A stretch of DNA of 64,000 bases from a virus. Lineage: Duplodnaviria; Caudoviricetes. Positions 2,115-54,906 of this stretch are shown here, piece by piece. Each line of letters begins with the position of its first letter. Position 1 is the stretch's first letter. Below the pieces are notes generated by a model, which worked only from the letters and a program-made list of their open reading frames with translations, was not told the origin of the DNA and searched no databases. The stretch spans positions 694 through 64,693 of the IMG/VR virus record IMGVR_UViG_3300005662_000042; one strand, written 5' to 3'. A program made the position numbers and the translations under genes.

Positions 2115-2895
2115 AATTTTAGCAATTAGAGCAGCAAGCGGCTTAGTTAATTTAATGTCTAAGAAGCCAGTAAGTGGTGCAATAAAAGACAGTACAGTCG
2201 CACAAATATCTGCAGCTCTTTTTTATAAAACAAATGTAATGGCAAAGCTTGCGTCAAACCCGCAGTTTCAATCAGCATTTAGGAATATTATATTTGATCA
2301 GCTTCAGGTTGATTTTGGAGATTACATTGATGCAAAAGCCAGATCGGGCCCCAAATCTTTTCACCATGTATATGAATGGGGAAGGATTGGAGATGACGAA
2401 GCTCGATTATTTAAATTAAATAAGTTGCCAGCAGATGGACTATCTTTAAAAGTTAATTATGAATTAATAGACTCTCAGTCGTTTGTTCCATCTGAGAATT
2501 CTAATAATAAACATGTATTTATTAAAAAAGCAGAAGTTATGGAAGAGGGAAAGCCTGTAGTCATTGCGCCACGATTTTCTGAAAGACTAGTATTTGATGT
2601 AAGTGGATATACTGTATTCATGCCAAAGGGGCAACCTGTTACTGTAAGAAAGCCAGGCGGGGCTGGAACTAAAAACTCTTTCTTTTCTGCATATAAGTAT
2701 TTTTTTACTGGTCAACTTGTCAGTATGTCTATTAAAAAATCTGGATTCCAAAGACTTTTTAATTCATCTTTATCTAGAGCACTTGGAGTGCCAGTTCAAA
2801 TTAAAACAGTTAAATATAGTTTTTCTGCCAACCAGCTAGCAAACGAGGCAGATGTTGCAATATCATCATCTTTTGCGAGGTTGGCAAATGGCTAA
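2104..2895 (+). CDS. Neck/tail-completion protein
   Basis: 263-aa ORF between stopper and tail terminator. Confidence 0.5.
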   Translation: MASEILAIRAASGLVNLMSKKPVSGAIKDSTVAQISAALFYKTNVMAKLASNPQFQSAFRNIIFDQLQVDFGDYIDAKARSGPKSFHHVYEWGRIGDDEARLFKLNKLPADGLSLKVNYELIDSQSFVPSENSNNKHVFIKKAEVMEEGKPVVIAPRFSERLVFDVSGYTVFMPKGQPVTVRKPGGAGTKNSFFSAYKYFFTGQLVSMSIKKSGFQRLFNSSLSRALGVPVQIKTVKYSFSANQLANEADVAISSSFARLANG

Positions 2896-3397
2896 TTATA
2901 AACTAGATGCAATGTTTGAAATAAGAAAGTTTTTGTGGGGTAGGCTAACTGCTCTTAATATATTTGATCAAGAAGATTACTATTCGGATAATCTTAGAGA
3001 GTCTCTTATCCCAATAGTTCCAGTTCAACAGCAGCCAGAAATGAATCAATTTTTAAGTGGGAAAAAACATATAGTTTATGACAAGGTCGGGATGTCATAT
3101 GAGAATAACTGGATGATATGTTGCGAGCAGATACTGTTAACTATATATTCACCAGATCTTTTAGATATTGTCGAGATAAGAAACTTCCTGACTGATGAGT
3201 TTAGAAGAATGGACGAGTCGGCTAGAGATATGAACAGGTGGGCTGGCCTATCAGATAAATTTAAGTTCCATAGTATTCATATAGCCGATATATCTTCTAC
3301 AGCTCCATCAGAAGAAATACAGGGATTCTTTGCAGCAGATGTAATATTGGAAGCAAAATACTCCAGAATAACCAATGGCCAAGGCAGATTTGCCTAA
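2888..3397 (+). CDS. Tail terminator protein
   Basis: ATG at 2888 (MANYKLD) overlapping the previous stop; immediately precedes the major tail gene. Confidence 0.55.
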   Translation: MANYKLDAMFEIRKFLWGRLTALNIFDQEDYYSDNLRESLIPIVPVQQQPEMNQFLSGKKHIVYDKVGMSYENNWMICCEQILLTIYSPDLLDIVEIRNFLTDEFRRMDESARDMNRWAGLSDKFKFHSIHIADISSTAPSEEIQGFFAADVILEAKYSRITNGQGRFA

Positions 3398-3398
3398 C

Positions 3399-3427
3399 TT
3401 GCCTTTTATAAAATAGTAGAGTAAAAT
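3399..3427 (+). promoter_or_regulatory. Sigma70-type promoter for the major tail gene
   Basis: TTGCCT-17 nt-TAAAAT. Confidence 0.6.
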
Positions 3428-3498
3428 TAGAACAGAGGAAAGGGCCTAGCCAGCCAATATATATATATTAATTTCATATGAAATCAGGAGGAAATACA

Positions 3499-4242
3499 AT
3501 GGCACAATCACAAGGAGACGCCCGCAATATTCTCGTAGGCGCATCACCGCTATTTTTATCAGTAGAAGATTCAACATCAGCTGGTTATGATTCAAGCATG
3601 GAAGCAGGCGTACTAAACGCATTTGTTGCAAACAAGAATCAGTATGTACCAGCTTTTGAATCAGGAAAGTCTTACACAACAACACTAAACAGTGTTTTGA
3701 CTGAAAAAGCAGCAACACAAACAACAGCACCAGCAGAAGCAAAGGGTGGAGCTTACAGAAACGTAGGATTTACAAATAACGGTCTTCAGATCAGCTACCA
3801 GCCAACATTTGACTCAGTAACTGTTGACCAGTTGCTAGATACAGCTAAGTTGTTTAAGTCTGCAATGCAGGTTCAAATTTCAACAGAAATGTCAGAAGGT
3901 ACTCTAGAGAACATTCTTGCAGTATTCGGACAGAAGTCATCAACACTTACATCAGCAGGAACAGGTGCAACAGCAGTTGACACACTAGGTTTGGAAGCAG
4001 GTGCACTTGGTGCAGCTCCAACAGAGCGTCAGCTAATTGCAGTTGGACAGGCTCCAACTTCAGAGGCATCAGAAACTGAGCGTGTATATTATGCACGTCG
4101 TGTTCTTTCTGTTGAGCAGTCACAGTTCTCTTTGGCTCGTACAGCAGCAACAACATTCCCAGTAACATTCCGTCTGCTACCAGACGTAAATGCTGTTGGT
4201 TCAGAATACGGTAAGATTATTGACCGTGTTATAACACTTTAA
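3499..4242 (+). CDS. Major tail tube protein
   Basis: AGGAGG RBS, ATG at 3499; 'YRNVGFTNNGLQISYQPTFDSVTVDQLLD' siphoviral tail-tube pattern; followed by terminator, chaperone and TMP. Confidence 0.85.
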   Translation: MAQSQGDARNILVGASPLFLSVEDSTSAGYDSSMEAGVLNAFVANKNQYVPAFESGKSYTTTLNSVLTEKAATQTTAPAEAKGGAYRNVGFTNNGLQISYQPTFDSVTVDQLLDTAKLFKSAMQVQISTEMSEGTLENILAVFGQKSSTLTSAGTGATAVDTLGLEAGALGAAPTERQLIAVGQAPTSEASETERVYYARRVLSVEQSQFSLARTAATTFPVTFRLLPDVNAVGSEYGKIIDRVITL

Positions 4243-4349: not shown

Positions 4350-4682
4350 ATGGCAACAACAGTATATGACGTAGAAGAGATTGAACTACAAAGCGGGGCT
4401 AAAGTAAAGCTCAAGCCATTATCAATCAAGCAACTACGCAAGTTTATGGAAGTAATTAAGAAAGTGCAAGATGCAGAAGACGAGACTGCAACACTTGGAA
4501 TTTTAGTTGAAGCATGCGGAGTAGCATTAGAAGTTCAACTACCAGATCTTGTTAAGGATATAGACAAGCTTGAAGAAGCATTAGACGTTCCAACAATCAA
4601 TCGCATTCTTGAAGTTTGCGGAGGAATTAAGATGGACGACCCAAACCTAATAGCGGCAGCGGTACTGGCTGGTCAGAACTAG
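4350..4682 (+). CDS. Tail assembly chaperone (gpG-like)
   Basis: 110 aa; AGGAGG RBS; between major tail gene and TMP. Confidence 0.85.
   Translation: MATTVYDVEEIELQSGAKVKLKPLSIKQLRKFMEVIKKVQDAEDETATLGILVEACGVALEVQLPDLVKDIDKLEEALDVPTINRILEVCGGIKMDDPNLIAAAVLAGQN
4640..4646 (+). other. -1 programmed ribosomal frameshift site C CCA AAC
   Basis: X XXY YYZ heptamer in the chaperone reading frame; the -1 frame is stop-free from 4631 to 5017. Confidence 0.8.
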
Positions 4683-5017
4683 ATTTAGCCGCTTTAGAGG
4701 GTCAAGTTTTTCTTCTAGGACACTGGAAGAATTACGAAGAACTAGAAGAAAATTTATCGATGCCAGAGTTAGTTCAAACAATAACAGCGATAAATGAAAA
4801 AGAGCATAACCAGAGAAGATTTGCAGCATCACTAAAAGGAATACAATTAGATGATGCTGTAGAAGAAAAAGAAAAAGGTTCTACCTTTGAAGACATCCAA
4901 AGAAGAGCCCTTGGAATACATACATCAGCAGATGATGTTGTTAGTTTACAAGGACCCTTTGCAGCACAAGCTGGATTTGGAATCGGAGCAGGGTTAGGAT
5001 ACTCTAGGAGTGATTAG
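4640..5017 (+). CDS. Tail assembly chaperone frameshifted extension (gpGT-like C-terminal part)
   Basis: Open -1 frame ...WSELDLAALEGQVFLLGHWKNYEELEENLSMPEL...; includes the called ORF 4760..5017. Confidence 0.75.
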   Translation, partial: PKPNSGSGTGWSELDLAALEGQVFLLGHWKNYEELEENLSMPELVQTITAINEKEHNQRRFAASLKGIQLDDAVEEKEKGSTFEDIQRRALGIHTSADDVVSLQGPFAAQAGFGIGAGLGYSRSD

Positions 5018-8000
5018 TGGCTGACGAACAAATTGTAACGAGTATAGTCGCCAAAGCCGACTTGTCTAGCCTTGTGTCTGAAGTACACAGGGCTAGTTCC
5101 AGTCTCCAACAATTACAAAGAGAGCTTCTTTCTTCAAACAGAGCAATAGCTTCTTCAACAAAGTTAGCAAACAACTTATTTAGAGATACATTAACAGGTA
5201 GCGGGCAGTTCTCTAGTCACTTTGTAAACCTTAATTCAGATGTAGACAAGTTTGGTAAAAACTTAGATGCTGGAAGATTAAAGCTTAAGAACTACTTCTC
5301 AACATTTAGAGAACATGCCACTACCCAAAAGGGTATGATTAGGGAACTTGCTAAAGAGCAAGTAATGCTTCAAAATTCAGTACTACAGCCGTTGGGAAGA
5401 AATGCCCAGGGGCTAATGCAGTATAACGTAATGATTCCAAGAGGTCTTGATGCTGTAAAGAATAGTGCACAGCTAGCTAGAATGGAAATGCAGATTATGA
5501 ATCGTGCATTGTCAGAAGGAGCTGGATCTTTAATTAACTGGGGTAAAAATACTCAGTGGGCTGGTAGACAGCTTACAGTAGGATTAACTGTCCCTCTTAC
5601 AATGTTCGGTGCTGCAGCAGGAAAAGCTTTTAGAGAAGCAGATCAAGAGCTTGTAAGACTAACAAAGGTTTATGGTGGATTAGCTTCAACTTCAGCAGCA
5701 GATTTAAAAGCAATTAGAGAAGAAGTTGTTCAGACAGCAAAGTCTTTATCTCAAACTATGGGAGCTTCTTTTAAAGACACAATTGCTTTAGGTGCTGATA
5801 TTGCTGCAACTGGAAAAATGGGTAACGATCTTTTAGGTTCTATAGAAGAAACAACAAGACTAGCAATACTTGGTGAAGTAGATAGACAAGATGCTATGAA
5901 AGCAACTCTTTCAATTCAAACAGCATTTAAGCAAAATACAGAAGAGCTTACGGCATCAATTAACTTTCTTAACGCAGTTGAAAACCAAACATCTACAACA
6001 CTTAATGATTTAGTAGAAGCAATTCCAAAAGCTGGTCCAGTTGTACAGCAGCTTGGCGGCAGCATTGAAGACTTAGCCCTTTATATGACTGCAATGAGAG
6101 AGGGTGGAATTAATGCTTCAGAAGGCGCAAACGCATTAAAGTCAGGTTTAGCTTCTTTAATTAATCCAACAAAACAAACAATCGGAATGATGTCAGATTT
6201 TGGTATAGATGTAATGGGAATGGTTGCAAAAAATACTGGAGACACAACTGGGTTATTAATGGATTTGCAATTTGCTCTAGATAAACTGGATCCTTTAAGT
6301 AAGGCTAGAGCAATGGAGCAGATGTTTGGAAAGTTCCAGTTTGCAAGAATGAGCGCACTTTTAAATAACCTAGGTAAAGAGGGAAGCCAGACTTTACAGG
6401 TTATGGAATTAATGAAAGCAAGCACTTCAGATTTAGCAGGAATTGCTGAGCGAGAATTAGGAATGATAACAGAGTCAGCTTCTGGAAAATACAGAAGAGC
6501 AATGGAATCGCTAAAAGCATCTCTTGCAGATATTGGAGAAGACTTTCTTCCAGTTGCAACAAAGCTTATAAATGCCGCATCAAAGATACTAGACTTCTTT
6601 AGTAATTTACCAGCACCAATTAAAAAAGCAGTAACATTTATGGCAGGATTTACTGCATTAGTTGGACCACTTATTATGTTAACGGGTGTGCTTGCTAACT
6701 TCTTTGGATATATAACAAAAGGAATTGTACAGCTTAGAGCATTTTTCATGAAAGCAAGCGGATGGAAAATGCTTACTCCAGAAATTATTGCCGCACAAAA
6801 AGCAGCAGAGATGGTCGAGAATGCATTTTATTCAGATGCAGCTGCGGCTCAGGTTCTTCACAATGCATTACAAAAACTTGTTTTAGATTATCAAAACCTT
6901 CAAGCTGCATCAATGAAGGGTGCAGTTCCAGTAAATCCAGGAGTAAGCACAGTTGGTGGATCCACAATAGTTACTGCTGGAAGAAGAATTGTAGATGCTT
7001 CTGATCCTTATGTGGGAGATCCTAATACAAGGGCAATGTCACACATTAATCCTAGAGACCCAAATAATCCTGCAACAATATTTGGAGGGGTCCCAGGAGC
7101 AGTTCCAGTAAACAGAGGAATAGCAAGAACTCCTCAAATGTACATGCATGATAGACTTCCAAACGTTGAGGGTCTAACAAGTGTTAAGGGAATATCAACT
7201 GGAATTGTTCCAGGAGAGGCAGCAAAATTCCATGCATTAATGGCAACACTTGGAATGCAGACAGAGCAAGAAGTAGCATCATTAAAGAAAACAATTGCTA
7301 TGGGTGGAACAGTAAGCAGAGAACTTCTGGATACATTCGATGATATTCTTCCAATAACTCAAAGATTTGCCGACAGCGCAGCAACACAAGCAGCAGCAAT
7401 AGTTCAACAATTAAGAAATTCAGAAATAACAGTTGAGCAAGCAAAGGCAAGAATACTTGCACTAAACGCACAAATAGAAGCAGACATGGGTGCTGCAGTA
7501 ACTGCATACGCTGCATCACGAGGAAGAACAATTGATTTAACAAGAGCTCCAATGATGGGCCAGCCAGTCGTTGATGCAAATGGACAGTTTACGCTAAGAG
7601 ATTTATATAAGAAAAAAGCAAATGCTTCTGTAATGGAAGAGTTTGGAAGACTTCGAGGCATAAGAACATTTGGAGCTCCTTACAGTATTCAAACTACTAG
7701 AATGCCTAGATTTAATGATGGTGGAGGCATCGAGTCTTTTGGCCCAGGCAAGACTATGGTTTCTGGACCATCTTCAATTAATTATGATGACAGACTTGGC
7801 AGTGTTCCAGTTGGCGGGTATGTATTAAATCAGCAAGCCGCAATGGATCCAGCTAATGCTGCATTAGTAGCTATGGCACCAAGTACTTATTTAAATAACG
7901 GTGGAAATATTACTGCAGCTCTTACTCCACGGGAAGTAGTATTCGGACCTCAAATTCAAAGAATGCCTGAGCTATATGCAGCAGTAGATGCAGCAAACAA

Positions 8001-11000
8001 TGGTTATAATTTTGGCGGGCAGATCATGGATGGAGTTACTGGCTATGGAAAGAAAACTGCAAGAACTCCAAATGTAGAAGATAAAGCTTATTACAAGAAG
8101 CAGTTAAAAGAATATTTAAGATTTATTAATAACCCAAGATATGAAGACGACATCAGAGTAAGAATGATTATGCTTGATGCTGCAGAGCTAGCACATACAG
8201 CAGGTATACCAGTAGACAAGGCTATAAAAATTGCTTCGAGTAATTTTGATTTAGCAAAGAGTGCATCTGGTGGATCAATTGAAAAGTTTATTGAACAAAG
8301 AATTAAGCAGGTCAAGGGCCTAGAGAGAAGATATCCATCATTAAAACATCCAGATTCTTCATCTACAAGAACTCCTAATAGCAAGGCTTTAAACTACAAG
8401 CTAAATGATGTTAGATCGGCAATGCTTAGGAGCCCAAGATTTAAAAATGTTTTTGATTTAATTGATGGAATATCTCCAACCACAATAAAGAACCCTGGCG
8501 GAATGCCTTTGCTAGAAGGACTTCATGTTAGAGGCCACGTACTTAGACACGGACAGGTAGGATACGCAACCAGAGGTCATATGGGAGTTGCAGCAGTACT
8601 TCCTCATGGAATTAATAGTTTAATGTCACGACTTCAGGGGATAGGAATTTCTCCAGATGTACTAAGTTTAACAGGCCCAGATGCAAGAAAGAATTTTGAA
8701 ATAGCGCTAAAGTCTGTCGGAATGCACAGAATGACAAGCGTAGACGACATTGCAACAGCGCTAGAAGACAATAATTTATTTAAGAGCAAATCAGAAATTC
8801 AATCAGGAAGAGCAATTAGAGCAACCTCAAAACAAAGAAATGATTTGCAAATGTTCCTAGAGGCAGTAATGTCTAGGAAAAAATGGGTTATGATCCCTAG
8901 AGGAAGACCTCCTATTATGACTCCAGTTCTTGCAAAATTAAATAAGGGTGGAATGATCCCAGGCGGAAGTATATCTAGGGGTAGAAGTTCTTATGGCAAC
9001 CCAATGCCTTTATTGGCACCAGAGAAGATGCTTAAAATTTTAACAACAGCAAAGCAATTAAGCTCAAGAGAAGCACTAGGCTCATTTGCCGATACACCAA
9101 TAACTCAGTACGGACATAGAATTGCTGGCAGCTCTGGCATGAGCTACCCGATACCTGGTGTATCTGGTGTATACAGAGACGCTAAAGGTAAACTAGTTTT
9201 TGTTAAAGGCGTCTCACATGAAGCAGTTGCAATTCATGAGCCAATAGGGGCGGACATTGTTAGAAAGGGGTTTAAGATAAATACCCCAGTAATGGGAGCT
9301 AGAACAGTATCTAATCCTTTAGACCCAACAAAAAATAGTAAACTTCTTGCTCTAGAATCAGACTACGACCCACGCTTTGTAAAAACTAATGTGCCATGGG
9401 ATGAAGGTACAGTAATTAGACAGCTTGCCGCTTCTCTTCTTATGAATAATAAAGATTTGTCTAGGTCAAATGTATTTGGTAACTTTAATCCAGATGTTGG
9501 ACAATCTGGAGTATTTACTAGAGCATCTGGAAATACAGCAGTCGCAAAAGCTGAAGAAATGAACTCAATGGAAAAACAAGCAATGATTAACTTGCTTGCT
9601 GTTAGAGGCGGAGCAAGAAAAGACTTTGCACGTGATACAGCTCCAATAGTTGCTAAGATGAGCCCAAGAAGATATGGTCGACTAATGAAGGATGCATTAG
9701 TGCAAGCTCGTCCAGAATTAGTAAAGATTATAAACGGATTGCCTAAAGAAATTCGTGGCCCTTATATTGCAATGCTTAAAAGGTTGGATGATGGAATCGA
9801 AGTTGATTGGAGTAAATACCATTCTTTGCATGCTAATCCAACATACCTTAATGCTGGAGGTCCAATCGGCGGAGGCTTAATTAGAAGAGGTAGATATGCC
9901 TACGGTGCTAAAAAAGATGGATCAAGAAGATCAGGAAATCCAGCAAAAAGAGCTGAGCAAGAAAGATTAAGAGCAGAAAGAGCAGCATCTTATCAGCCAA
10001 CAAGATCTGGCTCTTCTTACACAGCTACTGGTAATCCACAAGTACAGGTTACCCGTGTCCCTTATGTTGGAGGAACTGGAGTACGTGGAAACGCTTACAC
10101 TGGACAACTTACTCCTTCTGCAGCTAGAACTATTAGCACAATGAGGCTGGCACAATTCCCTTATATGAATATGCCAACTATGCCAATGAACATTCCAGGG
10201 ATTGGAAATACAGCAGCAATAACACAAGCATTTTCGTCTGTATCTTCTTCTATACAAAAGGGTTCAATAAGATTCAACCTAGAGCTACTCAACGCAGCTA
10301 GTAAAATGGGAATTGCCTATAAGCAGTCTACAATGTCAATCATAAATGTTTCAAAGACTGCAGTAGCAACAGCTAGAAATTTTGCAACATCATCAGCTGA
10401 TATGGCTAAAGGTTTTGTGCAAAGAAGACAAGCTGAAATATTAAGAGAGCAGGCTTTAGTTACAGCAAGACATTATCCTAATGGAGGATTCGATCCTTAT
10501 CAAAGATCATACTTCGGGCCTGGAATGGTCGGAGACTGGAGAAGCACTGGTCAAGATGGAATACAGAAAAGAAAAGTAGGAAGCCTCGGATTTAGAAAAA
10601 CAGAGTATATGATTGATGGTCAGCATATGACTAAGGCTCAAGCAAAGGCAGCAGGAGTTGCTTTGCCTCCAAGAGGTATGGGCATGGGCAGCCAAATGGG
10701 AATCGGAATGGCTGGATCAATGGGCGGTATGGCCTTGATGCAGAAAGAAAAGGTTAACGTACTTGGTTATGAAATGTCTGGAGCATCAGCAGGAATGGGT
10801 GTTATGGCTGCAAGCAGCATACTTCCATTCTTACCATATGCAAAAATGGGTGCTGGACTTAAGAGCGCAGGAACTGCATCAGTAGGTCTTGCAAAAGGAA
10901 TGGCAGCGGCAGCTAAAGCTGGAACATTCTTTATAAAAATACTTCCAAAATTGCTACACTTTGCCAAAGCCTTTGGCCCAATCGGATTAGTTATAACAGC

Positions 11001-14000
11001 AGCTGCAACCGCATTCTCAATATTTAAGGCCAATAACGACGCATGGCAAGATGCCAGAATGGGTCTTTCTATGACCGAAAAGGCGGCAGAGCAGGCTGGA
11101 GTTAAATACTTTAACCTTCAAGAAACAATGCAAGGCTATCTTGATAAGCAAAAGGCTGTAGCAATTGCAGGCAAGGCCTCACAGTATAATTCAATAGGAA
11201 TGCCTGGACTTCCACAGTCTATAGAAGACATGAAGAAGGCAAAAGAAGAGGGTAAGGGCCTAACAGATTTAATTGAATCTATTAATAGGTCTACAAGTGC
11301 TGCTGAAACTAAGAGACTCGTAGCAAATCAAAAAGCACAATATATTGCAGGTGGAATGAGCATAGCGGACGCAAATAGAAAAATATACGGAGCGATGCTT
11401 AACAGTGAAAAATCAGGTCAAGTATTTAATATTATAGGCAACAGTGCATTTGGATCAATTACTGATAAGGCTTCAGCAGCAGAATATTCTGTTAAGAGCT
11501 TAATCAATACATTAAATAATGGCGACGGAACCGCTGACTGGGGCAAAGAAGTTGGCGTAGGCTTTGAAGGATTAATAAATGTATTTAGCTCAGCTACAAA
11601 TTCTTTGATTGGAACAAAAGATGCTTTAGGAAATGTAATAGACGAGTACACTGCATATCAAATGGTTATGAGTGATGCAGAAAGTAATAATCCAAAAATT
11701 AATGAGGCAATAGGACAAAGTGTTTATTCAAATTTAATTGACTCACAGCCACTGTTAGAGCTAATTGCAAATAAATCAGATAGCATTAAAGGCATATTGG
11801 CAAAGTGGAAGTTGTTTACATCTGGAGTTAATATAGACTTAAGTAAGATTGATTCAACCTTAGCAATTAAATTAGCTGGATTTTCCCAAGCAATTGGAAC
11901 AGGAATTCAAAAATTAACTAATTCAGCTGATAATGCAACTACATTCTCTTCAGTTGGATCGGCACTAGAAAGATTAAAGAAGACCATCGGATCTGTATCT
12001 GCAGCATCTCAAAGAGCAGCTAATGCTGCACAAAGAAGTGCACAAGAAGAGTTAAAGCTAATTTCCAAAAAGATTAAACTTATTGATGATGAAAAAAATA
12101 AAAAGCTGGAAGCGCTAAGAGCAACACAAGAAGCATCTAACTATGCGCTATCTTTGCAAAAGCTACAGATAGAATATGCTGATGCGGTATCTCGTGGAGA
12201 CATGGCTACAGCAAATCGTGCTCAGCTAGAGATAGATCAGCTTACAATGAACAGGCAAACAGAACTTGCCACTAAAGCAATTGAAGATGCTGCAGCAAAA
12301 GCTAAGGCACCACTAGAAAAGAAGGCGACTGACATACAGGATGCCTCAGATAAACGATCTAATACTATTGCAACAAATCAAGACAAAGCCGCTTCTGCAT
12401 CAGAAATAGCTGCAAAGCTTACAGAGTTCCAAGAAAAATATAACGAAATAGTTGAAAGAGGAATTCAGGCTCAGGTACTTCCAGATGCAGAAAGAAAGAA
12501 AGAAGAAAAAGCAGTTAGAGAGTCTTTACTTGCATTTGCTAAAGAAGTTCAAAATGCTGGAACTGGAAGCTCTGCTCTTTCAAAAGAAATACGTAACGCA
12601 TTCTTTAAGCTAGGGCTATTTGACAAAGATGGAAAAGCAATTCCAGTAACTACAACAAAACCTACAGGCGGAATGCCAACAGGAGTTGATGCAAACGGCA
12701 AACCAATAATTCCAACTACCACTACAATAAACTCAGGGCTAACAGAGCAATTTGCTAAAGATATGAAGGCAGTAACCTCCCTTGCACTAGATATAACTGG
12801 AGGAACTACTTTAAATCAACTCAGACTAGATTTGCTAAAAGCTCTAGGAAAAAGCAGTTCAGCAACAGCTGACCCAACAACAGTTGGAGGCAAGGTTGTG
12901 CCTGGTAAAGGTGGAAATCCAACAAAGTACTTTGACTCTAAGGGTAACCAGATAACAAAAGAGCAATATGAAAGTATGCCATCTTCTTCACCTGGCGGCG
13001 GAACTAATTTTTCAGTACCTATAGATGGATTAAAGAGCAAATCTTTTGGAAGCATGTCTGCTGTACAGAGAGAATTTTTTGAGTTAAATGGTGGTAAAGG
13101 AGAGTACAAGAGTGTTGATGGATATAAATACTTAGCAAATGGTTTGGTCTACAAAGACAAAGCTATTGTAGGCCGATGGTGGCATTTCTTGCCAAATGGT
13201 AATGGCAGAGTTAAAACTTATAGTGAGGGATCCCCTGGAGGAGTTGTATCTGGTCCAGGAACTGGAACATCTGATTCTATTCCAGCAATGCTTTCAAATG
13301 GAGAGTATGTAATAAAAGCAGCTTCTGTTGCGAAATATGGAACTCAAACATTTGATGCACTGAATGCTGGAAAATATGCAGATGGTGGTTTAGTACTTAA
13401 TGAGCCAAGGCCTGCAGTCGACTATACCCCACTTCCCTCTACACCAATATCAAAGCTAGGTAAAACTACACAAGCGCAGATTAAGTATTTAAGAGATTGG
13501 ACCAATTTATTAAACACCTACTATGCTGCAAAGTACAAGGACATTTTTAGCTTTAAGCCAGGAGAAAAAATTGTAACTTCATTAGATACAATGCCTGTTG
13601 TCAAAGGCACCAAGGTAGTTAAAGATCCAGATAAAGCTTTACTTGATACCCAACAGTACGGGGGGCAATATAGACATTACGATTCTTCAATAACTATGGG
13701 CTTAGGCTTGGCTGGAAAACCAATGTTTATACCAAATCCAATAAATGAACCATCCACAATGAAAAATCTTAATCTAATCTCGTCCTTTCCGTTTTTAGCA
13801 AAAGGAATGTCTCCAGTTGATTACATAGAATCTATTTCAAAGGATGCACAAAAAAATCCATATGGAAGAATGGAAATTTTAACTACATTATTCCATGAAT
13901 TTGCTCATGCGCTACAATTTAGAATAAACGGATACATAAAAAATTCACAAAAATCAAGAGGATTAACTGATGTAGGAGATCCCAATAAGCCAACTCCAGG

Positions 14001-16392
14001 ATTCCTTAATATAGAATCTGGAGCCGATGTAATGGCTGGCGGTATATTTAAAGAAATGTATTCCAACGGATATATTCCTCAAATAAAAAAGTCTGTTATA
14101 GACACGCTTCTTAAAAGCCAAACTCTGACTGCATCTTACGGAGATGTCCCAGCATTTGATAAAAGAGATCCATCTTCTGAAAACTTCACCTGGCATCCAT
14201 ATAACAATAATTTTAGATTTAAATCTGTTATGACAGGATTTGGAATGGGTGACAGTGCATCTTTTGACGATACACTTACACTTAGAAAACAGTACCTCAC
14301 AGAAAATGGTGGAGTTCCAATAACATTTGCAGAAATAGGCGACTCTGCTGCAGCAATTGCTGCAATAACTCCAAACATGATTCCAAAGGGATTTCATAAA
14401 GGAGGGCCAGTCGGTCATAGGCATGGAAGAAATGCTCCTTCAACATCTGGCAATACAGCTCCTTCACAAGGTTCTTGGTGGGATAAACTTGGATTAAAGA
14501 TGTCTTATAAGCCAGACGGAATGATGAACCCTGTAGGAATGACTGGGTTTGGCATTCTTGATGCAATAAAATCTTTAGGTGCCGTAGCTATCGGCAGTGT
14601 TGTTCCATCTCTTCCTGCAAGAGAAAGAGACATAGCAAGCGCTGCAGAAACAACACTTGTAGGTCCAGCATCCAGATTATTTGGAAGTGAAAGATTCCCA
14701 AGTCCATGGGGAGAATCAGGGCTAGGAATGTCAAGCGGATGGTCAAAAGGAATGGATGTGGCTTCTATATTAGCAGCCGTTGTACCATTTGGAATGGTAG
14801 CCAGAACTTCTCAACAAACAGCAGTAAATGCTGCAGCATTTCCAGCAGCAAGAGCAGCAGCATCAGTAGGTCTTGCTAAACCAAAACCAACATTGCCATC
14901 ACTGATGCCTGATGTCTTAAAGCCCAAAAAAGTCATGCCATCCGAATATTCTTTAGCCTATGATGCATCTGGATCTATGCATAGAATAGAAGTTAAATTA
15001 GGAGATGAGGTTGCAGGATACCTAACATGGGATAAAGAGACGGGGGTTGTTGAAAACTTACAGGTATACCCTAAACACCAAGGCAAGAATGTTGCAACAG
15101 CAATGTACAACAAGGCTCAAACAATTGCCCCAATTACACACAGCTCATACAGAACTCCAGCTGGCGATATATTTGCACACAGCATTGGAGACCCAGTTGT
15201 ACCTTTAAACGATAGTTGGCTTCCAGGAGATTGGACACAGGCGCAACTTGACGCAGCAAAACTTAGAAATAAAAATCATGTAGTTACACAATTACCTAAA
15301 GTTAAAGATCCAGACCTAGATGGCTTCTCTGGACCAGATATAGTTGGAGGACAAAGAGTAGTAGGAACTGAAAACTGGGGCAGCCTAATAACAGAAAATA
15401 GTGATATTATGAAAATATTAACTGAATTAAGCGCATTTTATAAAGTTGATGTTCGTCCTTCAGTTATTAGACAGAAAATGACTCCTGGCACCGCTGGATA
15501 TCATCGCAGTGACACACAGTCAGTGTATTTCCCAGATAAAACTAGGGGTGCCGTTGTAGCTCATGAAATAACGCATGCGGCGGACTTTCAGGGAGCTTAT
15601 TGGTCTTTTGAGGACATGCTGAAGTATCTATTAAAGACAGATAGAAAAGCCGCAGAGATAGTATTTAATGAATCAATGATGAATTCTTATGGCGTAGCTA
15701 AAAGTGGTGGAAATAGACCAGCATGGCTTTATGATTCGGTAGCCAGTAATCTAGAAACATATGCACCACAGCATCTACCATACTGGAGAGGCCTATTAGA
15801 AAAAAATGCAAATTCGCAAATACCTAATATAAAGCCTGCAGGATTAGATTTGGGCAATCCTTATGCTGATATATATGGATTTAAATTAGCTTCAATGCTT
15901 AAGTCATCTATGCGTGAAGGGTCCACACACTATAGAAGTCCTAAATTTTGGGAAGCACTAATAGCAGATGAAAATATTCCTTCCCACCTTGCTAAAAAGG
16001 GAGAAGGTTATATCGCGGCATTAAATAGATATCGTGTGGATGAAACTACACCAAATGATTCATTCCAGCTTAAAAAATTATTGGAGTACGCAATAGCGAC
16101 TAAAATGGCTAAGGGTGGATTAGTGGGAATACCTAAATTTGAAGCGGGAATTAATGTGGTCCCAGCTGACATGTTAGCAATGATTCATAAGAATGAAGCG
16201 GTAATTCCAGCCAACATGAATCCATTTAATCCAAATGCTACATCTTCCGCCGTGGCATCAGGATCAGTATATAATATTAATGTAGAGCTAAACGGAACTA
16301 CAGTAACAGCAAAAGACGTTGCAATGGAAATACATAGAGAGATGAGAATAAAAGAAATGGCAGCTGGAGTAAATAGAACGGTGGGCAAATAA
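5017..16392 (+). CDS. Giant tape measure protein with embedded enzyme-like domains
   Basis: 3791 aa, GTG start, follows the chaperone. N-terminal TP901-type TMP core; hydrophobic segments at about 10680-11030; C-terminal GPGTGTSDSIPAMLSNGEYV and AMIHKNEAVIP motifs; internal kinase-like, HExxH (x2) and GNAT motifs. Confidence 0.92.
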   Translation: MADEQIVTSIVAKADLSSLVSEVHRASSSLQQLQRELLSSNRAIASSTKLANNLFRDTLTGSGQFSSHFVNLNSDVDKFGKNLDAGRLKLKNYFSTFREHATTQKGMIRELAKEQVMLQNSVLQPLGRNAQGLMQYNVMIPRGLDAVKNSAQLARMEMQIMNRALSEGAGSLINWGKNTQWAGRQLTVGLTVPLTMFGAAAGKAFREADQELVRLTKVYGGLASTSAADLKAIREEVVQTAKSLSQTMGASFKDTIALGADIAATGKMGNDLLGSIEETTRLAILGEVDRQDAMKATLSIQTAFKQNTEELTASINFLNAVENQTSTTLNDLVEAIPKAGPVVQQLGGSIEDLALYMTAMREGGINASEGANALKSGLASLINPTKQTIGMMSDFGIDVMGMVAKNTGDTTGLLMDLQFALDKLDPLSKARAMEQMFGKFQFARMSALLNNLGKEGSQTLQVMELMKASTSDLAGIAERELGMITESASGKYRRAMESLKASLADIGEDFLPVATKLINAASKILDFFSNLPAPIKKAVTFMAGFTALVGPLIMLTGVLANFFGYITKGIVQLRAFFMKASGWKMLTPEIIAAQKAAEMVENAFYSDAAAAQVLHNALQKLVLDYQNLQAASMKGAVPVNPGVSTVGGSTIVTAGRRIVDASDPYVGDPNTRAMSHINPRDPNNPATIFGGVPGAVPVNRGIARTPQMYMHDRLPNVEGLTSVKGISTGIVPGEAAKFHALMATLGMQTEQEVASLKKTIAMGGTVSRELLDTFDDILPITQRFADSAATQAAAIVQQLRNSEITVEQAKARILALNAQIEADMGAAVTAYAASRGRTIDLTRAPMMGQPVVDANGQFTLRDLYKKKANASVMEEFGRLRGIRTFGAPYSIQTTRMPRFNDGGGIESFGPGKTMVSGPSSINYDDRLGSVPVGGYVLNQQAAMDPANAALVAMAPSTYLNNGGNITAALTPREVVFGPQIQRMPELYAAVDAANNGYNFGGQIMDGVTGYGKKTARTPNVEDKAYYKKQLKEYLRFINNPRYEDDIRVRMIMLDAAELAHTAGIPVDKAIKIASSNFDLAKSASGGSIEKFIEQRIKQVKGLERRYPSLKHPDSSSTRTPNSKALNYKLNDVRSAMLRSPRFKNVFDLIDGISPTTIKNPGGMPLLEGLHVRGHVLRHGQVGYATRGHMGVAAVLPHGINSLMSRLQGIGISPDVLSLTGPDARKNFEIALKSVGMHRMTSVDDIATALEDNNLFKSKSEIQSGRAIRATSKQRNDLQMFLEAVMSRKKWVMIPRGRPPIMTPVLAKLNKGGMIPGGSISRGRSSYGNPMPLLAPEKMLKILTTAKQLSSREALGSFADTPITQYGHRIAGSSGMSYPIPGVSGVYRDAKGKLVFVKGVSHEAVAIHEPIGADIVRKGFKINTPVMGARTVSNPLDPTKNSKLLALESDYDPRFVKTNVPWDEGTVIRQLAASLLMNNKDLSRSNVFGNFNPDVGQSGVFTRASGNTAVAKAEEMNSMEKQAMINLLAVRGGARKDFARDTAPIVAKMSPRRYGRLMKDALVQARPELVKIINGLPKEIRGPYIAMLKRLDDGIEVDWSKYHSLHANPTYLNAGGPIGGGLIRRGRYAYGAKKDGSRRSGNPAKRAEQERLRAERAASYQPTRSGSSYTATGNPQVQVTRVPYVGGTGVRGNAYTGQLTPSAARTISTMRLAQFPYMNMPTMPMNIPGIGNTAAITQAFSSVSSSIQKGSIRFNLELLNAASKMGIAYKQSTMSIINVSKTAVATARNFATSSADMAKGFVQRRQAEILREQALVTARHYPNGGFDPYQRSYFGPGMVGDWRSTGQDGIQKRKVGSLGFRKTEYMIDGQHMTKAQAKAAGVALPPRGMGMGSQMGIGMAGSMGGMALMQKEKVNVLGYEMSGASAGMGVMAASSILPFLPYAKMGAGLKSAGTASVGLAKGMAAAAKAGTFFIKILPKLLHFAKAFGPIGLVITAAATAFSIFKANNDAWQDARMGLSMTEKAAEQAGVKYFNLQETMQGYLDKQKAVAIAGKASQYNSIGMPGLPQSIEDMKKAKEEGKGLTDLIESINRSTSAAETKRLVANQKAQYIAGGMSIADANRKIYGAMLNSEKSGQVFNIIGNSAFGSITDKASAAEYSVKSLINTLNNGDGTADWGKEVGVGFEGLINVFSSATNSLIGTKDALGNVIDEYTAYQMVMSDAESNNPKINEAIGQSVYSNLIDSQPLLELIANKSDSIKGILAKWKLFTSGVNIDLSKIDSTLAIKLAGFSQAIGTGIQKLTNSADNATTFSSVGSALERLKKTIGSVSAASQRAANAAQRSAQEELKLISKKIKLIDDEKNKKLEALRATQEASNYALSLQKLQIEYADAVSRGDMATANRAQLEIDQLTMNRQTELATKAIEDAAAKAKAPLEKKATDIQDASDKRSNTIATNQDKAASASEIAAKLTEFQEKYNEIVERGIQAQVLPDAERKKEEKAVRESLLAFAKEVQNAGTGSSALSKEIRNAFFKLGLFDKDGKAIPVTTTKPTGGMPTGVDANGKPIIPTTTTINSGLTEQFAKDMKAVTSLALDITGGTTLNQLRLDLLKALGKSSSATADPTTVGGKVVPGKGGNPTKYFDSKGNQITKEQYESMPSSSPGGGTNFSVPIDGLKSKSFGSMSAVQREFFELNGGKGEYKSVDGYKYLANGLVYKDKAIVGRWWHFLPNGNGRVKTYSEGSPGGVVSGPGTGTSDSIPAMLSNGEYVIKAASVAKYGTQTFDALNAGKYADGGLVLNEPRPAVDYTPLPSTPISKLGKTTQAQIKYLRDWTNLLNTYYAAKYKDIFSFKPGEKIVTSLDTMPVVKGTKVVKDPDKALLDTQQYGGQYRHYDSSITMGLGLAGKPMFIPNPINEPSTMKNLNLISSFPFLAKGMSPVDYIESISKDAQKNPYGRMEILTTLFHEFAHALQFRINGYIKNSQKSRGLTDVGDPNKPTPGFLNIESGADVMAGGIFKEMYSNGYIPQIKKSVIDTLLKSQTLTASYGDVPAFDKRDPSSENFTWHPYNNNFRFKSVMTGFGMGDSASFDDTLTLRKQYLTENGGVPITFAEIGDSAAAIAAITPNMIPKGFHKGGPVGHRHGRNAPSTSGNTAPSQGSWWDKLGLKMSYKPDGMMNPVGMTGFGILDAIKSLGAVAIGSVVPSLPARERDIASAAETTLVGPASRLFGSERFPSPWGESGLGMSSGWSKGMDVASILAAVVPFGMVARTSQQTAVNAAAFPAARAAASVGLAKPKPTLPSLMPDVLKPKKVMPSEYSLAYDASGSMHRIEVKLGDEVAGYLTWDKETGVVENLQVYPKHQGKNVATAMYNKAQTIAPITHSSYRTPAGDIFAHSIGDPVVPLNDSWLPGDWTQAQLDAAKLRNKNHVVTQLPKVKDPDLDGFSGPDIVGGQRVVGTENWGSLITENSDIMKILTELSAFYKVDVRPSVIRQKMTPGTAGYHRSDTQSVYFPDKTRGAVVAHEITHAADFQGAYWSFEDMLKYLLKTDRKAAEIVFNESMMNSYGVAKSGGNRPAWLYDSVASNLETYAPQHLPYWRGLLEKNANSQIPNIKPAGLDLGNPYADIYGFKLASMLKSSMREGSTHYRSPKFWEALIADENIPSHLAKKGEGYIAALNRYRVDETTPNDSFQLKKLLEYAIATKMAKGGLVGIPKFEAGINVVPADMLAMIHKNEAVIPANMNPFNPNATSSAVASGSVYNINVELNGTTVTAKDVAMEIHREMRIKEMAAGVNRTVGK

Positions 16393-16982
16393 TGAGTTTT
16401 CAAAAACTACCCAAAGGATCAATTCTATACATTGAGGCAACAGACCCATATGCAATTGATACAGCTACTAACTCTTTTGATTATAAAGGCGGAACTGCAG
16501 TTGCTCCAGGAAACACATATACATCTGCAGTAGCAACAACCAACGGGCTAGCCCTAAGCTCAAAAACACAATTAAGATTTAGAAGAGTTTCAGAGCATAA
16601 TAGAAGTCCATTGTCTTTTAATAATAATAGAATTGAGCAGTCTACCAGAATGGCAAACGGAACCCTTAGAAGATATTTTGTTGCAGATAAATTAAATATA
16701 TCTATGTCCTGGGAAATGCTTCCATCTTTTCGAAATGAAACAGTTGACGGAGGTTGGGGAGCTGAAGATTTAAAGAATTTTTATGAGAGCCCAGCTGGCC
16801 GTGGCCCCTTTAGAATAAAACTTAATCCAACAGCTTTTAATCCAGAGTTAGTTGAACAAGCCGATGGATTTTTAGCAGATGACTATACGTATACGGTTAT
16901 GTTTACTTCATGTGATTTTTCTATTGTAAAAAGAGGACTTCAGACCTACTGGAATGTTACCATATCACTGGAGCAAGTATGA
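16392..16982 (+). CDS. Distal tail (Dit-like) protein
   Basis: First gene after the TMP; 'RIEQSTRMANGTLRRYFVADKLNISMSWEMLP'. Confidence 0.65.
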   Translation: MSFQKLPKGSILYIEATDPYAIDTATNSFDYKGGTAVAPGNTYTSAVATTNGLALSSKTQLRFRRVSEHNRSPLSFNNNRIEQSTRMANGTLRRYFVADKLNISMSWEMLPSFRNETVDGGWGAEDLKNFYESPAGRGPFRIKLNPTAFNPELVEQADGFLADDYTYTVMFTSCDFSIVKRGLQTYWNVTISLEQV

Positions 16983-19900
16983 TACCTGTATCAACCGCTA
17001 CAAGAGATTTATTAAAAAAGGGATATTCTATTTCGACTTCGGCGGGAGCAACAATTGAGTACAACTTAAACTCAATGGTAGAAAATGTATCTGCAACTTC
17101 AGATGCAATGACAAATAATTATAGCGTGGCATTTAAAAAGCTTTTTCCAATAGATACAATATATAAGCCATTCAGACCACTATCACCAGGAATTAAATAT
17201 TTAGTGCATACAACTAATAGCACAGATACCCCTAAAGATTCTTTTGAAAACCCTAGAGATGTGTCATTAGGAACAAAGCCTAGGCTGTACTATCCTGGCC
17301 CAGACATTGTGTATAAATATTGGTTGGCACCAAAAGATACTAATATTAATATATCTGTAAACTATTTTGTAGATGATACTGTTACATCTGAACCTAAGAT
17401 AATACCTGTTAACAAAATTATTGCAAGATTTGAAACAAATCATGACAAACCAACTTCGTGGACCATAACTGGAGTTAAGCCAGACAACACAACAATATCT
17501 GTAACTGGTACAACACTTAATTCAAATGGAGAAGCAGTAATATACTACAACGGATCCACATGGTCTACAACAGAGCCAGCAACTTACACTACTACTCAAA
17601 ACCTAAAAAGAATATCTTTATCCGCTGTAAACTCAAAGACTGGAAAATTTATTGGAGTTATTGAGTTTAGTCCTAGGTGGGTTATAAATGTTGATTCTGA
17701 CATTATGTCATTTTTGGTCAATAAAGAAACAACATCAGATGATACATCAATTGTCCCAGTTGGAATAATTACAGCAAACTATTTAAATATGTTTATATCT
17801 AAGCCGCATACAACTTCCAGGTCAATTGTTGAGTATGATAGGAATGCAGCAATTGATAGTACTAAAATTTATTTATTAAAAAATGCATTAATTAAGCCAT
17901 ATATAAATGTTGGAGATGGAGCAACATCTCAAAAGGTTCCTCAAGGATCATTCTACGTAAATACATGGTCATTATCAGAATTTGGAGAAGCTTCAATAGA
18001 TGCTACAGATGCTGCAAAAATATTGCAAGATACATTATGCCCACAGTTGCTAGTACAAGACTCACCAATAACTTCAATTATAAAAAGAATATTAGACTCA
18101 ATTGGATTTTCTACATATAAAATTAACGTTAAGACGGTAGATGGTAAAGTTGATGATGACTCCATTCCTTCCCTGTCTTACTGGTGGTCTGACGGAGATA
18201 AGACAGTGTGGGATGTTTTACAAGAATTATGTAGAGACATACAGATGAATGCTTTTGTAGATGAATATAATACACTAAACTTTTACAGCAGAAATTTTAT
18301 ATATGATAAAACAAGAGAGCCATCGTGGACATTTACAAGCGAAAATATAAATGTTAACTCTGTGCTAGATTATGCCCCTAACATACAATCATTATCAACT
18401 AAAGAACTTTTTTCTGCAAACCAAGTAAGGGTTAGATACTCTACTGCATTTACAGCATCTAATACTGAGTCATCATCCCCACTTTGGAAATCAGATACAT
18501 CATTTCTTGGAGCTGGAGCATTAACAAAAAAAATTGATCTTTCTAGCACAGACTTTTCGCTTCAGCCTAGCGTAGTTAATTCTGATAGAACAGATAGAAT
18601 ACTTGATCAGTTTAGCGGATATGTTTTAATTAACGGCGAAATTATTGAATATGATGGAGTATATTATCAGTATGTTCCAGTAAACGGAACTACTCCAATA
18701 GAAGTATTAATTAAAAGCCAATCCGATATTTGGAAATACTCAGCATTGGCAAAACCAGGTTATAAGAATTTTCAACCAACTAACAGATATAGTATTAAAA
18801 CAAGAGGTGCATTATCAACATCTAAATCAGTTCATGAAGTTGCTCCAGATTCTTATATAAATAAAGCAGGAGAGAATGATACAAATAAATTTAATAAATA
18901 TTCAATCACATTAGCAACACCAGATATAGCAAAAGATAAGCCAGGTTCGGGTAGTTACTTTATTCCAACTGGAAGTACAAGTAAAGGAATTAGAAAAGGG
19001 TTTTTAGCTATTTCTAATCTAGACCAAAATAAAAAAAGTTTTGATATTGCAATTAAAAAATTTGAATCAGTAGCACCCTCTGGCCCTTATTTTTCATTTG
19101 GCACTAGAATGTTTTTTGAAAGTCAGCTTAATACACCAGAGCAGGTAGGGGGAATAGGATTCTGTTTAGATTCTGACGGTAAAAATGGATATTATTTGCT
19201 AGTAAGAACAACTGCATATGCAGAGCTACAAAAAGATATAATGCTAGTAAAAGTTCAAAATGGAAGACTTACTGTTTTAAAAGATAGCCAGCAAAGCTCC
19301 ACAAAAACACTAGCTGGAATATATGCTGGCGTTTCTTATAATATTGATATTTTACTTAAGCCTTCGGAGCCACTGCCTGGGGGAGCATTTAAAAATATAA
19401 TTACAGTATTTATTAATGGATATAAAATAACAGCGGTAGATTCAGGATATGACGGTCCAAGCATTTACGTACCACCGATATCAATAACAAAAAATGTCGG
19501 TGTTCATTGCGGTCAAGGAGTTGCATATTTTGAATACCTTTATGCTAAAACAATTCCACAAGCAGTTTATGAGAAAAATAGCAAGGCAATTATATATGAA
19601 TATAATGGCGTATATTCAGATGACACTGTCTCAATGCTGTATGGAGATATTATATATAATGATGGAGAATCAGTTTCTGACAACACTGGCCCAGTATTTG
19701 AATTTGGAACTACGGCCAGAGAGATTAAAAAAACAAAAATATCATATGAAGATAGACCAGCCATACCAATTACTTTTAGAACATCTTTAAATAAATATGT
19801 AACTGTATTAGATCAGAGATTACAGCCATTTGGAGCAGAGAGCTATGTTCTAAATAACACATCTACTACAGTAGCTCTAGATGATAATAATAATACAAGC

Positions 19901-20248
19901 TTTTATGTTTTAGGTAACTCAATTCAAAGATCGGGAGTTATAGACTATGATACAGACCAGTCTACAGATTCTTCAAATAAAGAGTCCGTAGTATTTGACT
20001 CAGTATGGATTCAAAGAGAGCAAGACGCTAAAGCTCTTGCTGAATGGATTAAGTCCAATGTATTAAATAAAGGAAGATTTGTAGACATGACGGTCTTCGG
20101 TAACCCAATAATTTCGGCTGGAGATATAGTTAGAATTAACTATCCAATACTAGGTATGGATACAGCAACTAATAAATATATAGTTACAAAATGCACCCTA
20201 GAATATAGAGAGGGGCTTACCACAACAATTGCATGTAGAGCAATCTAA
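16979..20248 (+). CDS. Baseplate hub/minor tail protein
   Basis: 1089 aa; C-terminal hub-like motif 'VFGNPIISAGDIVRINY...YIVTKCTLEYREGLTTTI'; central lectin-like beta region. Confidence 0.7.
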   Translation: MIPVSTATRDLLKKGYSISTSAGATIEYNLNSMVENVSATSDAMTNNYSVAFKKLFPIDTIYKPFRPLSPGIKYLVHTTNSTDTPKDSFENPRDVSLGTKPRLYYPGPDIVYKYWLAPKDTNINISVNYFVDDTVTSEPKIIPVNKIIARFETNHDKPTSWTITGVKPDNTTISVTGTTLNSNGEAVIYYNGSTWSTTEPATYTTTQNLKRISLSAVNSKTGKFIGVIEFSPRWVINVDSDIMSFLVNKETTSDDTSIVPVGIITANYLNMFISKPHTTSRSIVEYDRNAAIDSTKIYLLKNALIKPYINVGDGATSQKVPQGSFYVNTWSLSEFGEASIDATDAAKILQDTLCPQLLVQDSPITSIIKRILDSIGFSTYKINVKTVDGKVDDDSIPSLSYWWSDGDKTVWDVLQELCRDIQMNAFVDEYNTLNFYSRNFIYDKTREPSWTFTSENINVNSVLDYAPNIQSLSTKELFSANQVRVRYSTAFTASNTESSSPLWKSDTSFLGAGALTKKIDLSSTDFSLQPSVVNSDRTDRILDQFSGYVLINGEIIEYDGVYYQYVPVNGTTPIEVLIKSQSDIWKYSALAKPGYKNFQPTNRYSIKTRGALSTSKSVHEVAPDSYINKAGENDTNKFNKYSITLATPDIAKDKPGSGSYFIPTGSTSKGIRKGFLAISNLDQNKKSFDIAIKKFESVAPSGPYFSFGTRMFFESQLNTPEQVGGIGFCLDSDGKNGYYLLVRTTAYAELQKDIMLVKVQNGRLTVLKDSQQSSTKTLAGIYAGVSYNIDILLKPSEPLPGGAFKNIITVFINGYKITAVDSGYDGPSIYVPPISITKNVGVHCGQGVAYFEYLYAKTIPQAVYEKNSKAIIYEYNGVYSDDTVSMLYGDIIYNDGESVSDNTGPVFEFGTTAREIKKTKISYEDRPAIPITFRTSLNKYVTVLDQRLQPFGAESYVLNNTSTTVALDDNNNTSFYVLGNSIQRSGVIDYDTDQSTDSSNKESVVFDSVWIQREQDAKALAEWIKSNVLNKGRFVDMTVFGNPIISAGDIVRINYPILGMDTATNKYIVTKCTLEYREGLTTTIACRAI

Positions 20249-54905: not shown

Positions 54906-54906
54906 C

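Follow-up and report, generated by a model that had tools for sequence, protein, structure and literature searches.

Tape measure proteins (TMPs) are usually seen as rulers that carry at most a wall hydrolase; they are ejected and form or line a channel. The 5,002-residue TMP gp96 of Thermus phage P23-45 is fused to a virion RNA polymerase, which transcribes pre-early genes inside the host (PMC10770324). T5 pb2 forms a trimer with its C-terminus in the tail tip; its cleavage site follows an Arg and separates a hydrophobic stretch from a muralytic metallopeptidase motif (PMC10038345). Polyvalent proteins (Iyer et al. 2017) bring together zincin-like peptidases, often more than one, a kinase and a GNAT in one huge ejected polypeptide; the phage-type MPTases among them have an Asp three residues after HExxH and are thought to act on proteins, self-processing being raised as one possibility (PMC5512222). 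Tape measure proteins occur zero times in that paper. Already known are thus TMPs with wall hydrolases, one TMP with a fused RNA polymerase, and polyvalent proteins on other carriers. Here we describe the giant TMP encoded at 5017..16392 of a 64,000-nucleotide stretch of viral DNA (the window; bases 694-64693 of the 64,693-bp IMG/VR record IMGVR_UViG_3300005662_000042, a metagenomic contig rated 48% complete). A predicted kinase fold is embedded in the conserved core of this protein, and a GNAT fold and two putative zinc-peptidase modules occupy a variable slot close to its C-terminus.

The window TMP differs from known enzyme-bearing TMPs and from polyvalent proteins in having the kinase, GNAT and HExxH set on the tail ruler itself. 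Among the papers searched, for TMPs joined to a kinase, acetyltransferase, metallopeptidase or polyvalent protein, none described such an architecture. With P23-45 gp96 it shares the plan of a giant TMP with a cytoplasm-dependent enzyme on the ruler polypeptide, membrane segments and a metallopeptidase region. However, gp96 has an N-terminal RNA polymerase of shown activity, while here a mid-protein kinase fold and a C-terminal zincin/GNAT part are predicted only; no sequence relation between the two proteins was found. T5 pb2 and gp36 of Streptomyces phage Annadreamy are similar to it as TP901/T5-type rulers with hydrophobic stretches, an enzyme placed before a conserved C-terminal tip segment, and likely cleavage nearby. 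Their enzymes are muralytic M23 peptidases, whereas here HExxH and GNAT modules lie in the slot and a kinase fold in the core. Like polyvalent proteins, the window TMP is a very large phage protein that unites several enzyme domains of unrelated kinds, and its last cassette (D2) has HExxHxxD followed by a later Glu. Polyvalent proteins are head-packaged or delivered by conjugation (portal/MuF, ArdC and others), in contrast to a tail TMP, and their kinase clade has no C-lobe, which is present here. The polyvalent likeness proposed in an earlier note, made from the sequence alone, holds for the kinds of domain and the D2 motif; it does not extend to the carrier, nor to PF18818 (MPTase-PolyVal), which gave no match at E <= 10.

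The product of 5017..16392 is a genuine TP901-type TMP inside a normal siphovirus tail module. It is read from a single uninterrupted open reading frame (ORF) with a GTG start. The protein matches PF10145 (PhageMin_Tail) at amino acids (aa) 239-438 (E 4.7e-26, 92.4 bits against a cut-off of 33.2), TIGR01760 of NCBIfam (E 7.5e-32, 110.7 bits against 28.8), at least 12 PHROG TMP families at aa 15-860, and the PHROG family of a TMP C-terminal motif (phrog_23013) at aa 2741-2787. Its gene follows those for the major tail protein and the chaperones and precedes the distal and minor tail genes, and the gene order in Annadreamy is identical. These matches and this position confirm the 3791-aa TMP claimed in the earlier note, which had also placed the HEFAH motif (nt 13894), the HEITH motif (nt 15562), the GNAT motif (nt 15064) and the kinase-like block (nt 9100-9830) correctly. 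TIGR01760 was the sole NCBIfam model found on the TMP, and a PADLOC scan gave no match. A whole-gene DNA search of the phage collection found nothing, and tblastn of aa 793-3791 against the phage collection returned only a 41-aa TMP-motif match in Gordonia phage GAL1. The protein is composed as follows (window positions, strand, feature).

5017..16392, + strand: complete tape measure ORF, 3,791 aa, zero cysteine
5017..7710, + strand: N-terminal TMP scaffold, aa 1-898, with the PF10145/TIGR01760 core and a hydrophobic segment at aa 537-568
7711..8019, + strand: Gly-rich joint cluster, aa 899-1001, with three [FYLM]-x-x-G-G motifs and two 'D-x-(I/V)P...G-E/G-x-V' TMP motifs
8020..8937, + strand: module A, helical, aa 1002-1307 (alignment and model)
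8938..9045, + strand: joint LNKGGMIPGGSISRGRSSYG and linker, a low-confidence flexible stretch of the model
9046..9849, + strand: module B, protein-kinase-like fold, aa ~1344-1611 (model, fold searches, conservation)
9859..13374, + strand: middle scaffold, aa 1615-2786, with a Gly/Pro-rich stretch, a hydrophobic Gly/Met/Ala-rich segment at aa 1979-2005 and a long Ala/Lys/Glu-rich helical-looking part
aa 2741-2787, + strand: core-end motif GPGTGTSDSIPAMLSNGEYVI (phrog_23013)
13387..14394, + strand: cassette C (HEFAH), aa 2791-3126, with a gluzincin-like motif pair
14404..14910, + strand: Gly/Ala/Pro-rich linker, aa 3130-3298, opening at joint FHKGGPVGHRHGR, with a hydrophobic segment at aa 3178-3197
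14929..15309, + strand: predicted minimal GNAT fold, aa ~3305-3431, motif VYPKHQGKNVATAMY (model, fold searches, relatives)
15379..16104, + strand: cassette D2 (HEITHAAD), aa 3455-3696, with an HExxHxxD...E pattern
16105..16392, + strand: conserved C-terminal segment, aa 3697-3791, opening at joint MAKGG (found in all relatives, partly in Annadreamy)

Proteins that pass narrow channels unfolded commonly avoid cysteine, and the lack of this residue throughout the 3,791-aa protein would be in keeping with its being stored in the tail tube and ejected through it.

The kinase-like block of the earlier note was borne out by fold searches and by conservation. We modelled modules A and B together with AlphaFold2 (aa 1001-1618, alignment of 20 relatives; mean predicted local distance difference test score, pLDDT, 71). 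In this model, module B has a five-strand N-lobe with a helix and a helical C-lobe. A structural search with VIA against PDB representatives gave kinase-fold proteins in all 50 matches listed (Z 9.2-4.8, over model residues ~350-610). The best match was CotH (5jda; Z 9.2, root-mean-square deviation (rmsd) 4.4, 204 residues aligned), followed by PI4KII-alpha (Z 8.9), CtkA (8.5), HipT (8.3), HipA, MavQ and Fam20. The Foldseek PDB matches listed were likewise all kinases or pseudokinases (PAN3, SidJ, BRAF and others), with weak E values, from 3e-3. As Z values of 7-9 are tied across these families, no single parent kinase family can be named. Module B is similar to CotH, PI4KII-alpha, CtkA, HipA/HipT, MavQ and Fam20C in its bilobal fold and in the order Gly-loop, Lys, Glu, D-x4-N, D-x-G; it differs from these atypical kinases in showing only 8-13% identity, in having no membership by hidden Markov model (HMM), and in being embedded in a virion protein.

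Among 117 distinct kinase modules, 41-88% identical, only 37 of 307 positions are invariant and 270 vary. The invariant ones comprise G1381 and G1384 of the Gly-rich loop, K1397 (the beta3 Lys), E1408 (the alphaC Glu), D1480 and N1485 of D-x4-N, and D1493 of D-x-G (here DVG). Also invariant in 117/117, outside the canonical kinase set, is GGARKDF (aa 1531-1537, window 9607-9627), downstream of DVG; judging by its conservation, it may be a substrate-binding or activation-segment element. Pkinase, PF00454 (PI3_PI4_kinase), PF07804 (HipA_C) and PF08757 (CotH) gave no match at E <= 10 on the record or E <= 1 on the protein. A profile of A+B run against PDB sequences found no kinase sequence and no significant match, phmmer of the same region against PDB sequences gave nothing usable, and a search for stand-alone kinase relatives returned only three gene fragments. 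We predict that module B is a kinase-fold domain of its own family, probably active.

Module A is helical in the model and conserved across the family, more variably than B. The earlier note had called it a His-rich unknown domain (8020-8937). This label was dropped, as His makes up 2.6% of the module (aa 1002-1307) against 1.16% of the whole protein, and its sole local His cluster is missing in divergent relatives. The predicted viral structure nearest to the A+B model is a protein of Mycobacterium phage Onyinye annotated as ADP-ribosyltransferase (E 2.8e-5). Further viral neighbours are a PI3/4-kinase-domain protein (E 5.9e-5), halovirus PI3K/PI4K-domain proteins, portal and head-morphogenesis fusions, and polyvalent-associated proteins, all of them multidomain phage proteins. 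This hints that the helical and kinase unit may also ride on head-ejected proteins, a lead only, with aligned ranges not reported.

The GNAT motif (near aa 3350) was likewise upheld, by its fold and by relatives that pass Pfam. Our model of the cassette region (911 residues; the underlying alignment kept some noise) has a mean pLDDT of 54, and its GNAT part reaches ~90. The top VIA matches to that part are all GNATs (Z 9.3-7.5, 89-106 residues aligned, rmsd 2.2-3.9), among them TmcA (2zpa, Z 9.3) and ESCO1 (Z 8.9). So are the top Foldseek matches (probability 0.84-1.00, mostly >=0.96). When the cassette region was run exhaustively with HMMER against 1.84 billion representatives, ~90 small proteins of 87-200 aa aligned to aa ~3300-3410. 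Ten matches were scanned with Pfam, and 7 of the 8 small ones passed Acetyltransf_1 (for example P0146, 37.8 bits); those that passed had been found at E 1e-6 to 1e-11. The same model gives the TMP 14.4 bits, below the cut-off of 20.7. One protein, P0136 (3,303 aa), consists of many small GNAT domains in tandem, with Acetyltransf_1 at E 4e-72 and five stretches each above the threshold by itself. It has no TMP signature and is an unrelated giant protein, so that the small GNAT module is used in arrays elsewhere.

Cassettes C and D2 are probably zinc-peptidase-like modules, as far as their motifs tell. In cassette C, HEFAH (aa 2960-2964, nt 13894-13908) is followed ~36 residues downstream by ESGADVMAGG. 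The patterns L-F-H-E-F-[AG]-H-[AS]-L-Q and E-x-x-A-D-x-x-x-G-x-I show no variation in nine relatives, the most distant at 28% identity, and lie on consecutive predicted helices (cassette-model residues 159-191 and 210-227; adding 2789 gives the protein residue). When C was aligned by hhalign to E. coli YpfJ, both motifs fell in register, at a probability of only 22%. A PDB profile search with C gave a motif-only match to HEFGHALQ of M3 oligopeptidase A (E 1.1). A language-model look-alike of C, a viral 'Zn-binding metallopeptidase' cluster, scored below 0.9 and is a lead only. Cassette C had no HMM match to YpfJ-type PF04228, eCIS_core PF13699 or M3.

In cassette D2, HEITHAAD (aa 3516, nt 15562) is followed by a conserved RGLLEKNA, and H-E-x-x-H-x-x-D together with R-G-x-x-E-x-x-A is invariant in ten relatives, down to 25% identity. 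Its language-model neighbour is an LPD23-bearing cluster (0.89), again a lead only. Profiles of C and D2 against the PDB gave no significant match, with one chance match at a joint, and phmmer of the cassette region against PDB sequences gave nothing usable. The two HExxH metallopeptidases of the earlier note thus stand as far as the motifs and the downstream Glu residues on the next predicted helix are concerned, these being kept to 25-28% identity. Assignment to a peptidase family does not, since no peptidase HMM matches and the support is by motif.

The distribution of the modules was followed in a word-seeded HMMER search with aa 700-3791 as query. It found 148 related proteins of 2,095-4,576 aa, nearly all with PF10145, on contigs of up to 117 kb. 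A BLAST coverage map built from 120 of them (about 2,700-4,600 aa) showed that aa 1-2800, including the kinase, and the last 50-100 aa are common to essentially all, while aa ~2800-3700 form a variable stretch. Both anchors of this slot were present in 115 relatives. In 55 of these the slot is empty, and the other 60 carry between 278 and 1,711 aa of inserted sequence. Apart from the window TMP, six relatives have cassette C, five have the D block and five have GNAT alone, in differing combinations. The order zincin-GNAT-zincin recurs at 60-78% identity in three relatives (P0004, P0005, P0008) and on a separate JGI metagenome contig (L039); related-locus scans for the cassettes yielded only three loci. 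Elsewhere the slot holds CHAP or LysM, and in one protein OmpA. Judged by these comparisons, the helical and kinase unit is a fixed, conserved core of the whole family, and the putative zincin and GNAT modules are optional cassettes in a variable slot. The payload anatomy drawn in the earlier note thus largely holds in its parts, namely a kinase fold, a GNAT fold and two HExxH modules, which we find set apart by flexible joints; what fell is their equivalence. The comparison with related TMPs that it had called for separates the kinase, in the core of the family, from cassettes that vary, with 55 of 115 slots empty.

The TMP of Annadreamy (gp36, 2,076 aa, L041:9025-15255) carries an M23-like GPHLHFE, then GMKTGG and LAMLHKNETVLTAP. 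It shares with the window TMP the same joint and an 'AMLHKNE-V' C-terminal motif, and a profile search found no kinase module in it. We regard the slot as the classical site of a tip-proximal wall enzyme, diversified here. By analogy with T5 and 80alpha, the C-terminal segment would be the portion lodged in the tail tip.

The peptide [FYLM]-x-x-G-G recurs at every module boundary (aa 899, 959, 997, 1308, 1611, 2787, 3126 and 3697). It occurs eight times where 1.7 copies would be expected, a number attained in just 1 of 2,000 shuffles, but this count is weak evidence because the pattern was defined after inspection. Wherever models cover them, the joints fall in low-pLDDT linkers. In short relatives, three such motifs stand in tandem just ahead of the C-terminus; longer relatives have their cassettes inserted among these motifs. 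This pattern, as read from the alignments, is modular exchange at joints. At three loci (L029:8782-10797, L003 and L009), extra short inserts lie exactly at the joint of modules A and B, and one of them contains a duplicated FFNAGGPVG joint; their sequences are consistent with recombination or slippage at joints. Basic stretches follow three joints: GGMIPGGSISRGRSSYG (8938-9009), GGPIGGGLIRRGRYAYG (9847-9915) and GGPVGHRHGRN (14392-14430). As T5 pb2 is cut after an Arg, these stretches could, by analogy, be cleavage sites.

On balance, and with moderate confidence, we favour the reading that this is a true siphovirus TMP whose core kinase unit and C-terminal cassettes act on the host upon infection, both activity and delivery being predicted by analogy. 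Three TMP copies would lie extended or partly folded in the tail tube. At infection they would exit the tail with the C-terminus leading and use their hydrophobic segments to insert into the envelope, after which the ejected modules would refold. The ATP-dependent kinase and the acetyl-CoA-dependent GNAT would then act on host targets at or inside the cytoplasmic face, ahead of phage gene expression. We place their action in the cytoplasm because folds that depend on ATP and acetyl-CoA need it. The HExxH modules might release the other modules from the scaffold, or they might cleave targets in the host or the wall. The idea of delivery, put forward in the earlier note, is supported by the family-wide retention of every kinase catalytic residue and by the precedents of P23-45 gp96 (PMC10770324) and T5 pb2 (PMC10038345).

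Several points weigh against this reading. Wall-directed domains fill the slot in relatives, which argues for an envelope role there; since the slot of relatives holds cell-wall enzymes, a wall or self-processing role of the HExxH modules is as likely as an attack on host proteins. In the cassette model, the local pLDDT of cassette C is 30-70, and GNATs filled the fold-search lists, so that the zincin folds stay putative. As no kinase HMM matches, the substrate class of module B may be protein, lipid or small molecule, or the activity may be AMPylation or glutamylation as in SidJ. The GNAT is minimal and lacks the usual N-terminal substrate arm. Its acetyl-CoA loop reads Q-G-K-N-V-A, with Asn at the central Gly of Q/R-x-x-G-x-G/A; this loop precedes the right helix in the model. 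Storage must be assumed to be unfolded, as folded 30-kDa domains do not fit three abreast in the tube lumen. Finally, phage and host are both uncultured.

It is tempting to go further and, tentatively, to see the TMP as a jointed cargo polyprotein. The [FYLM]-x-x-G-G joints, several of them with basic R-G-R-type stretches, would serve both as sites of module exchange and as sites of cleavage after ejection, by the HExxH modules or by a host protease. Active kinase and acetyltransferase would thus be freed into the host cytoplasm before phage genes are read. The slot would then be an arms-race locus, in which wall cutters have been swapped for anti-host or anti-defence enzymes. We consider this extended version possible, well short of probable.

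Among the alternatives to action on the host, the one that survives best is that the enzymes serve assembly in the producing cell, which we find rather unlikely. The HExxH modules would trim the TMP, as with lambda gpH and T5 pb2, and the kinase and GNAT would modify virion or TMP parts, as CotH does on the spore coat. In T5 and lambda the TMP is known to be cleaved while the tail forms (PMC10038345). The top structural match, CotH, acts as a kinase on structural proteins, though it is tied with other kinases, and both ATP and acetyl-CoA are freely at hand in the cytoplasm of the producer. However, the 55 of 115 relatives that assemble without a cassette rule out that assembly needs zincin and GNAT, and the shuffling of cassettes resembles diversifying selection rather than a housekeeping step. 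An assembly role may still apply to the conserved kinase.

We think it less likely again that the C-terminal cassettes are tools of envelope penetration, in which the HExxH modules would replace M23, CHAP or LysM and cut peptidoglycan peptides or wall-associated proteins. The C-terminal peptidase of T5 pb2 is muralytic (PMC10038345). The slot contents speak for the same role here: CHAP and LysM fill it in many relatives and OmpA in one, and in Annadreamy the M23-like GPHLHFE stands directly before the same joint and C-terminal motif. The C-terminus is, moreover, the end that exits the tail first. Yet HExxH zincins are not, to our knowledge, a usual class of peptidoglycan hydrolase, and the neighbouring GNAT of the cassette block depends on acetyl-CoA, a cofactor not present beyond the membrane. 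The HExxHxxD of D2 is, besides, the pattern of polyvalent-protein peptidases thought to act on proteins (PMC5512222), and the kinase would be left unexplained.

It seems to us very improbable that the modules are passengers without activity, remnants of enzyme folds retained only to act as spacers or plugs, whether to set the length of the tail or to fill its tube. The kinase and zincins have no HMM-level membership in any enzyme family, and the GNAT loop is atypical. Spacers would not, however, preserve catalytic residues. Across 117 sequences, the most distant at 41% identity, none of the kinase catalytic positions changes, although 270 of 307 positions do, and HExxH with its downstream Glu is invariant at 25-28% identity.

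The weakest alternative is that assembly made a chimera of this giant ORF, as the earlier note had considered, or that several genes are run together in it. It was rejected as far as sequence data allow and has a negligible chance of being right: no evidence for it was found, the window being a metagenomic contig rated 48% complete, whereas the identical 3,791-aa protein is present on 4 contigs (the longest of 115,864 bp), the module order is repeated at 60-78% identity in independent assemblies of other metagenomes, the ORF has no internal stops and a uniform GC content, and the cassettes are followed by the conserved C-terminal segment, which every relative has in that place.

Among cultured phages, the nearest relatives are large Streptomyces siphoviruses (Stanwilliamsviridae), and the TMP scaffold (aa 53-665) is 32% identical to Streptomyces phage TMPs. 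A DnaE-like DNA polymerase III alpha at window 36024-39308 shares 57% identity with its counterparts in Streptomyces phages BillNye, Circinus and Wakanda, which places the phage near Stanwilliamsviridae. We regard it as an uncultured, lake-type siphovirus, about 115 kb in size. From the 33-42% GC of the window and from lake-type relatives, we infer a low-GC freshwater actinobacterium as the probable host. The window also encodes a cluster of six tRNAs (54832-55299: Met-CAT, Arg-TCT, Arg-CCG, Leu-TAA, Lys-TTT, Asn-GTT), and PHROG matches to a Nol-like carbamoyltransferase and a glycosyltransferase lie at 52761-54185 and 28730-29638. A head-tail adaptor gene is also found upstream of the TMP gene, whose neighbours in the tail module are the following.

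3478-4242: major tail protein with an Ig domain, upstream of the ORFs in chaperone position
4350..5017, + strand: two small ORFs, 110 aa and 85 aa, in the position of the tail assembly chaperone (PHROG scan, with phrog_10504, phrog_10474 and phrog_2175 in this tail region; gene order as in Annadreamy)
16392..20248, + strand: downstream tail genes, a 196-aa ORF and a 1,089-aa minor tail protein (phrog_10359; synteny with Annadreamy)

In summary, a family of lake phages keeps a kinase fold, predicted to be catalytically intact, in its ruler protein, which suggests that the tail lumen is a second route of enzyme delivery besides the head. If this is true, the RNA polymerase of P23-45 would become a case of a general principle, and siphovirus TMPs would be a new place to seek anti-defence or host-takeover enzymes.

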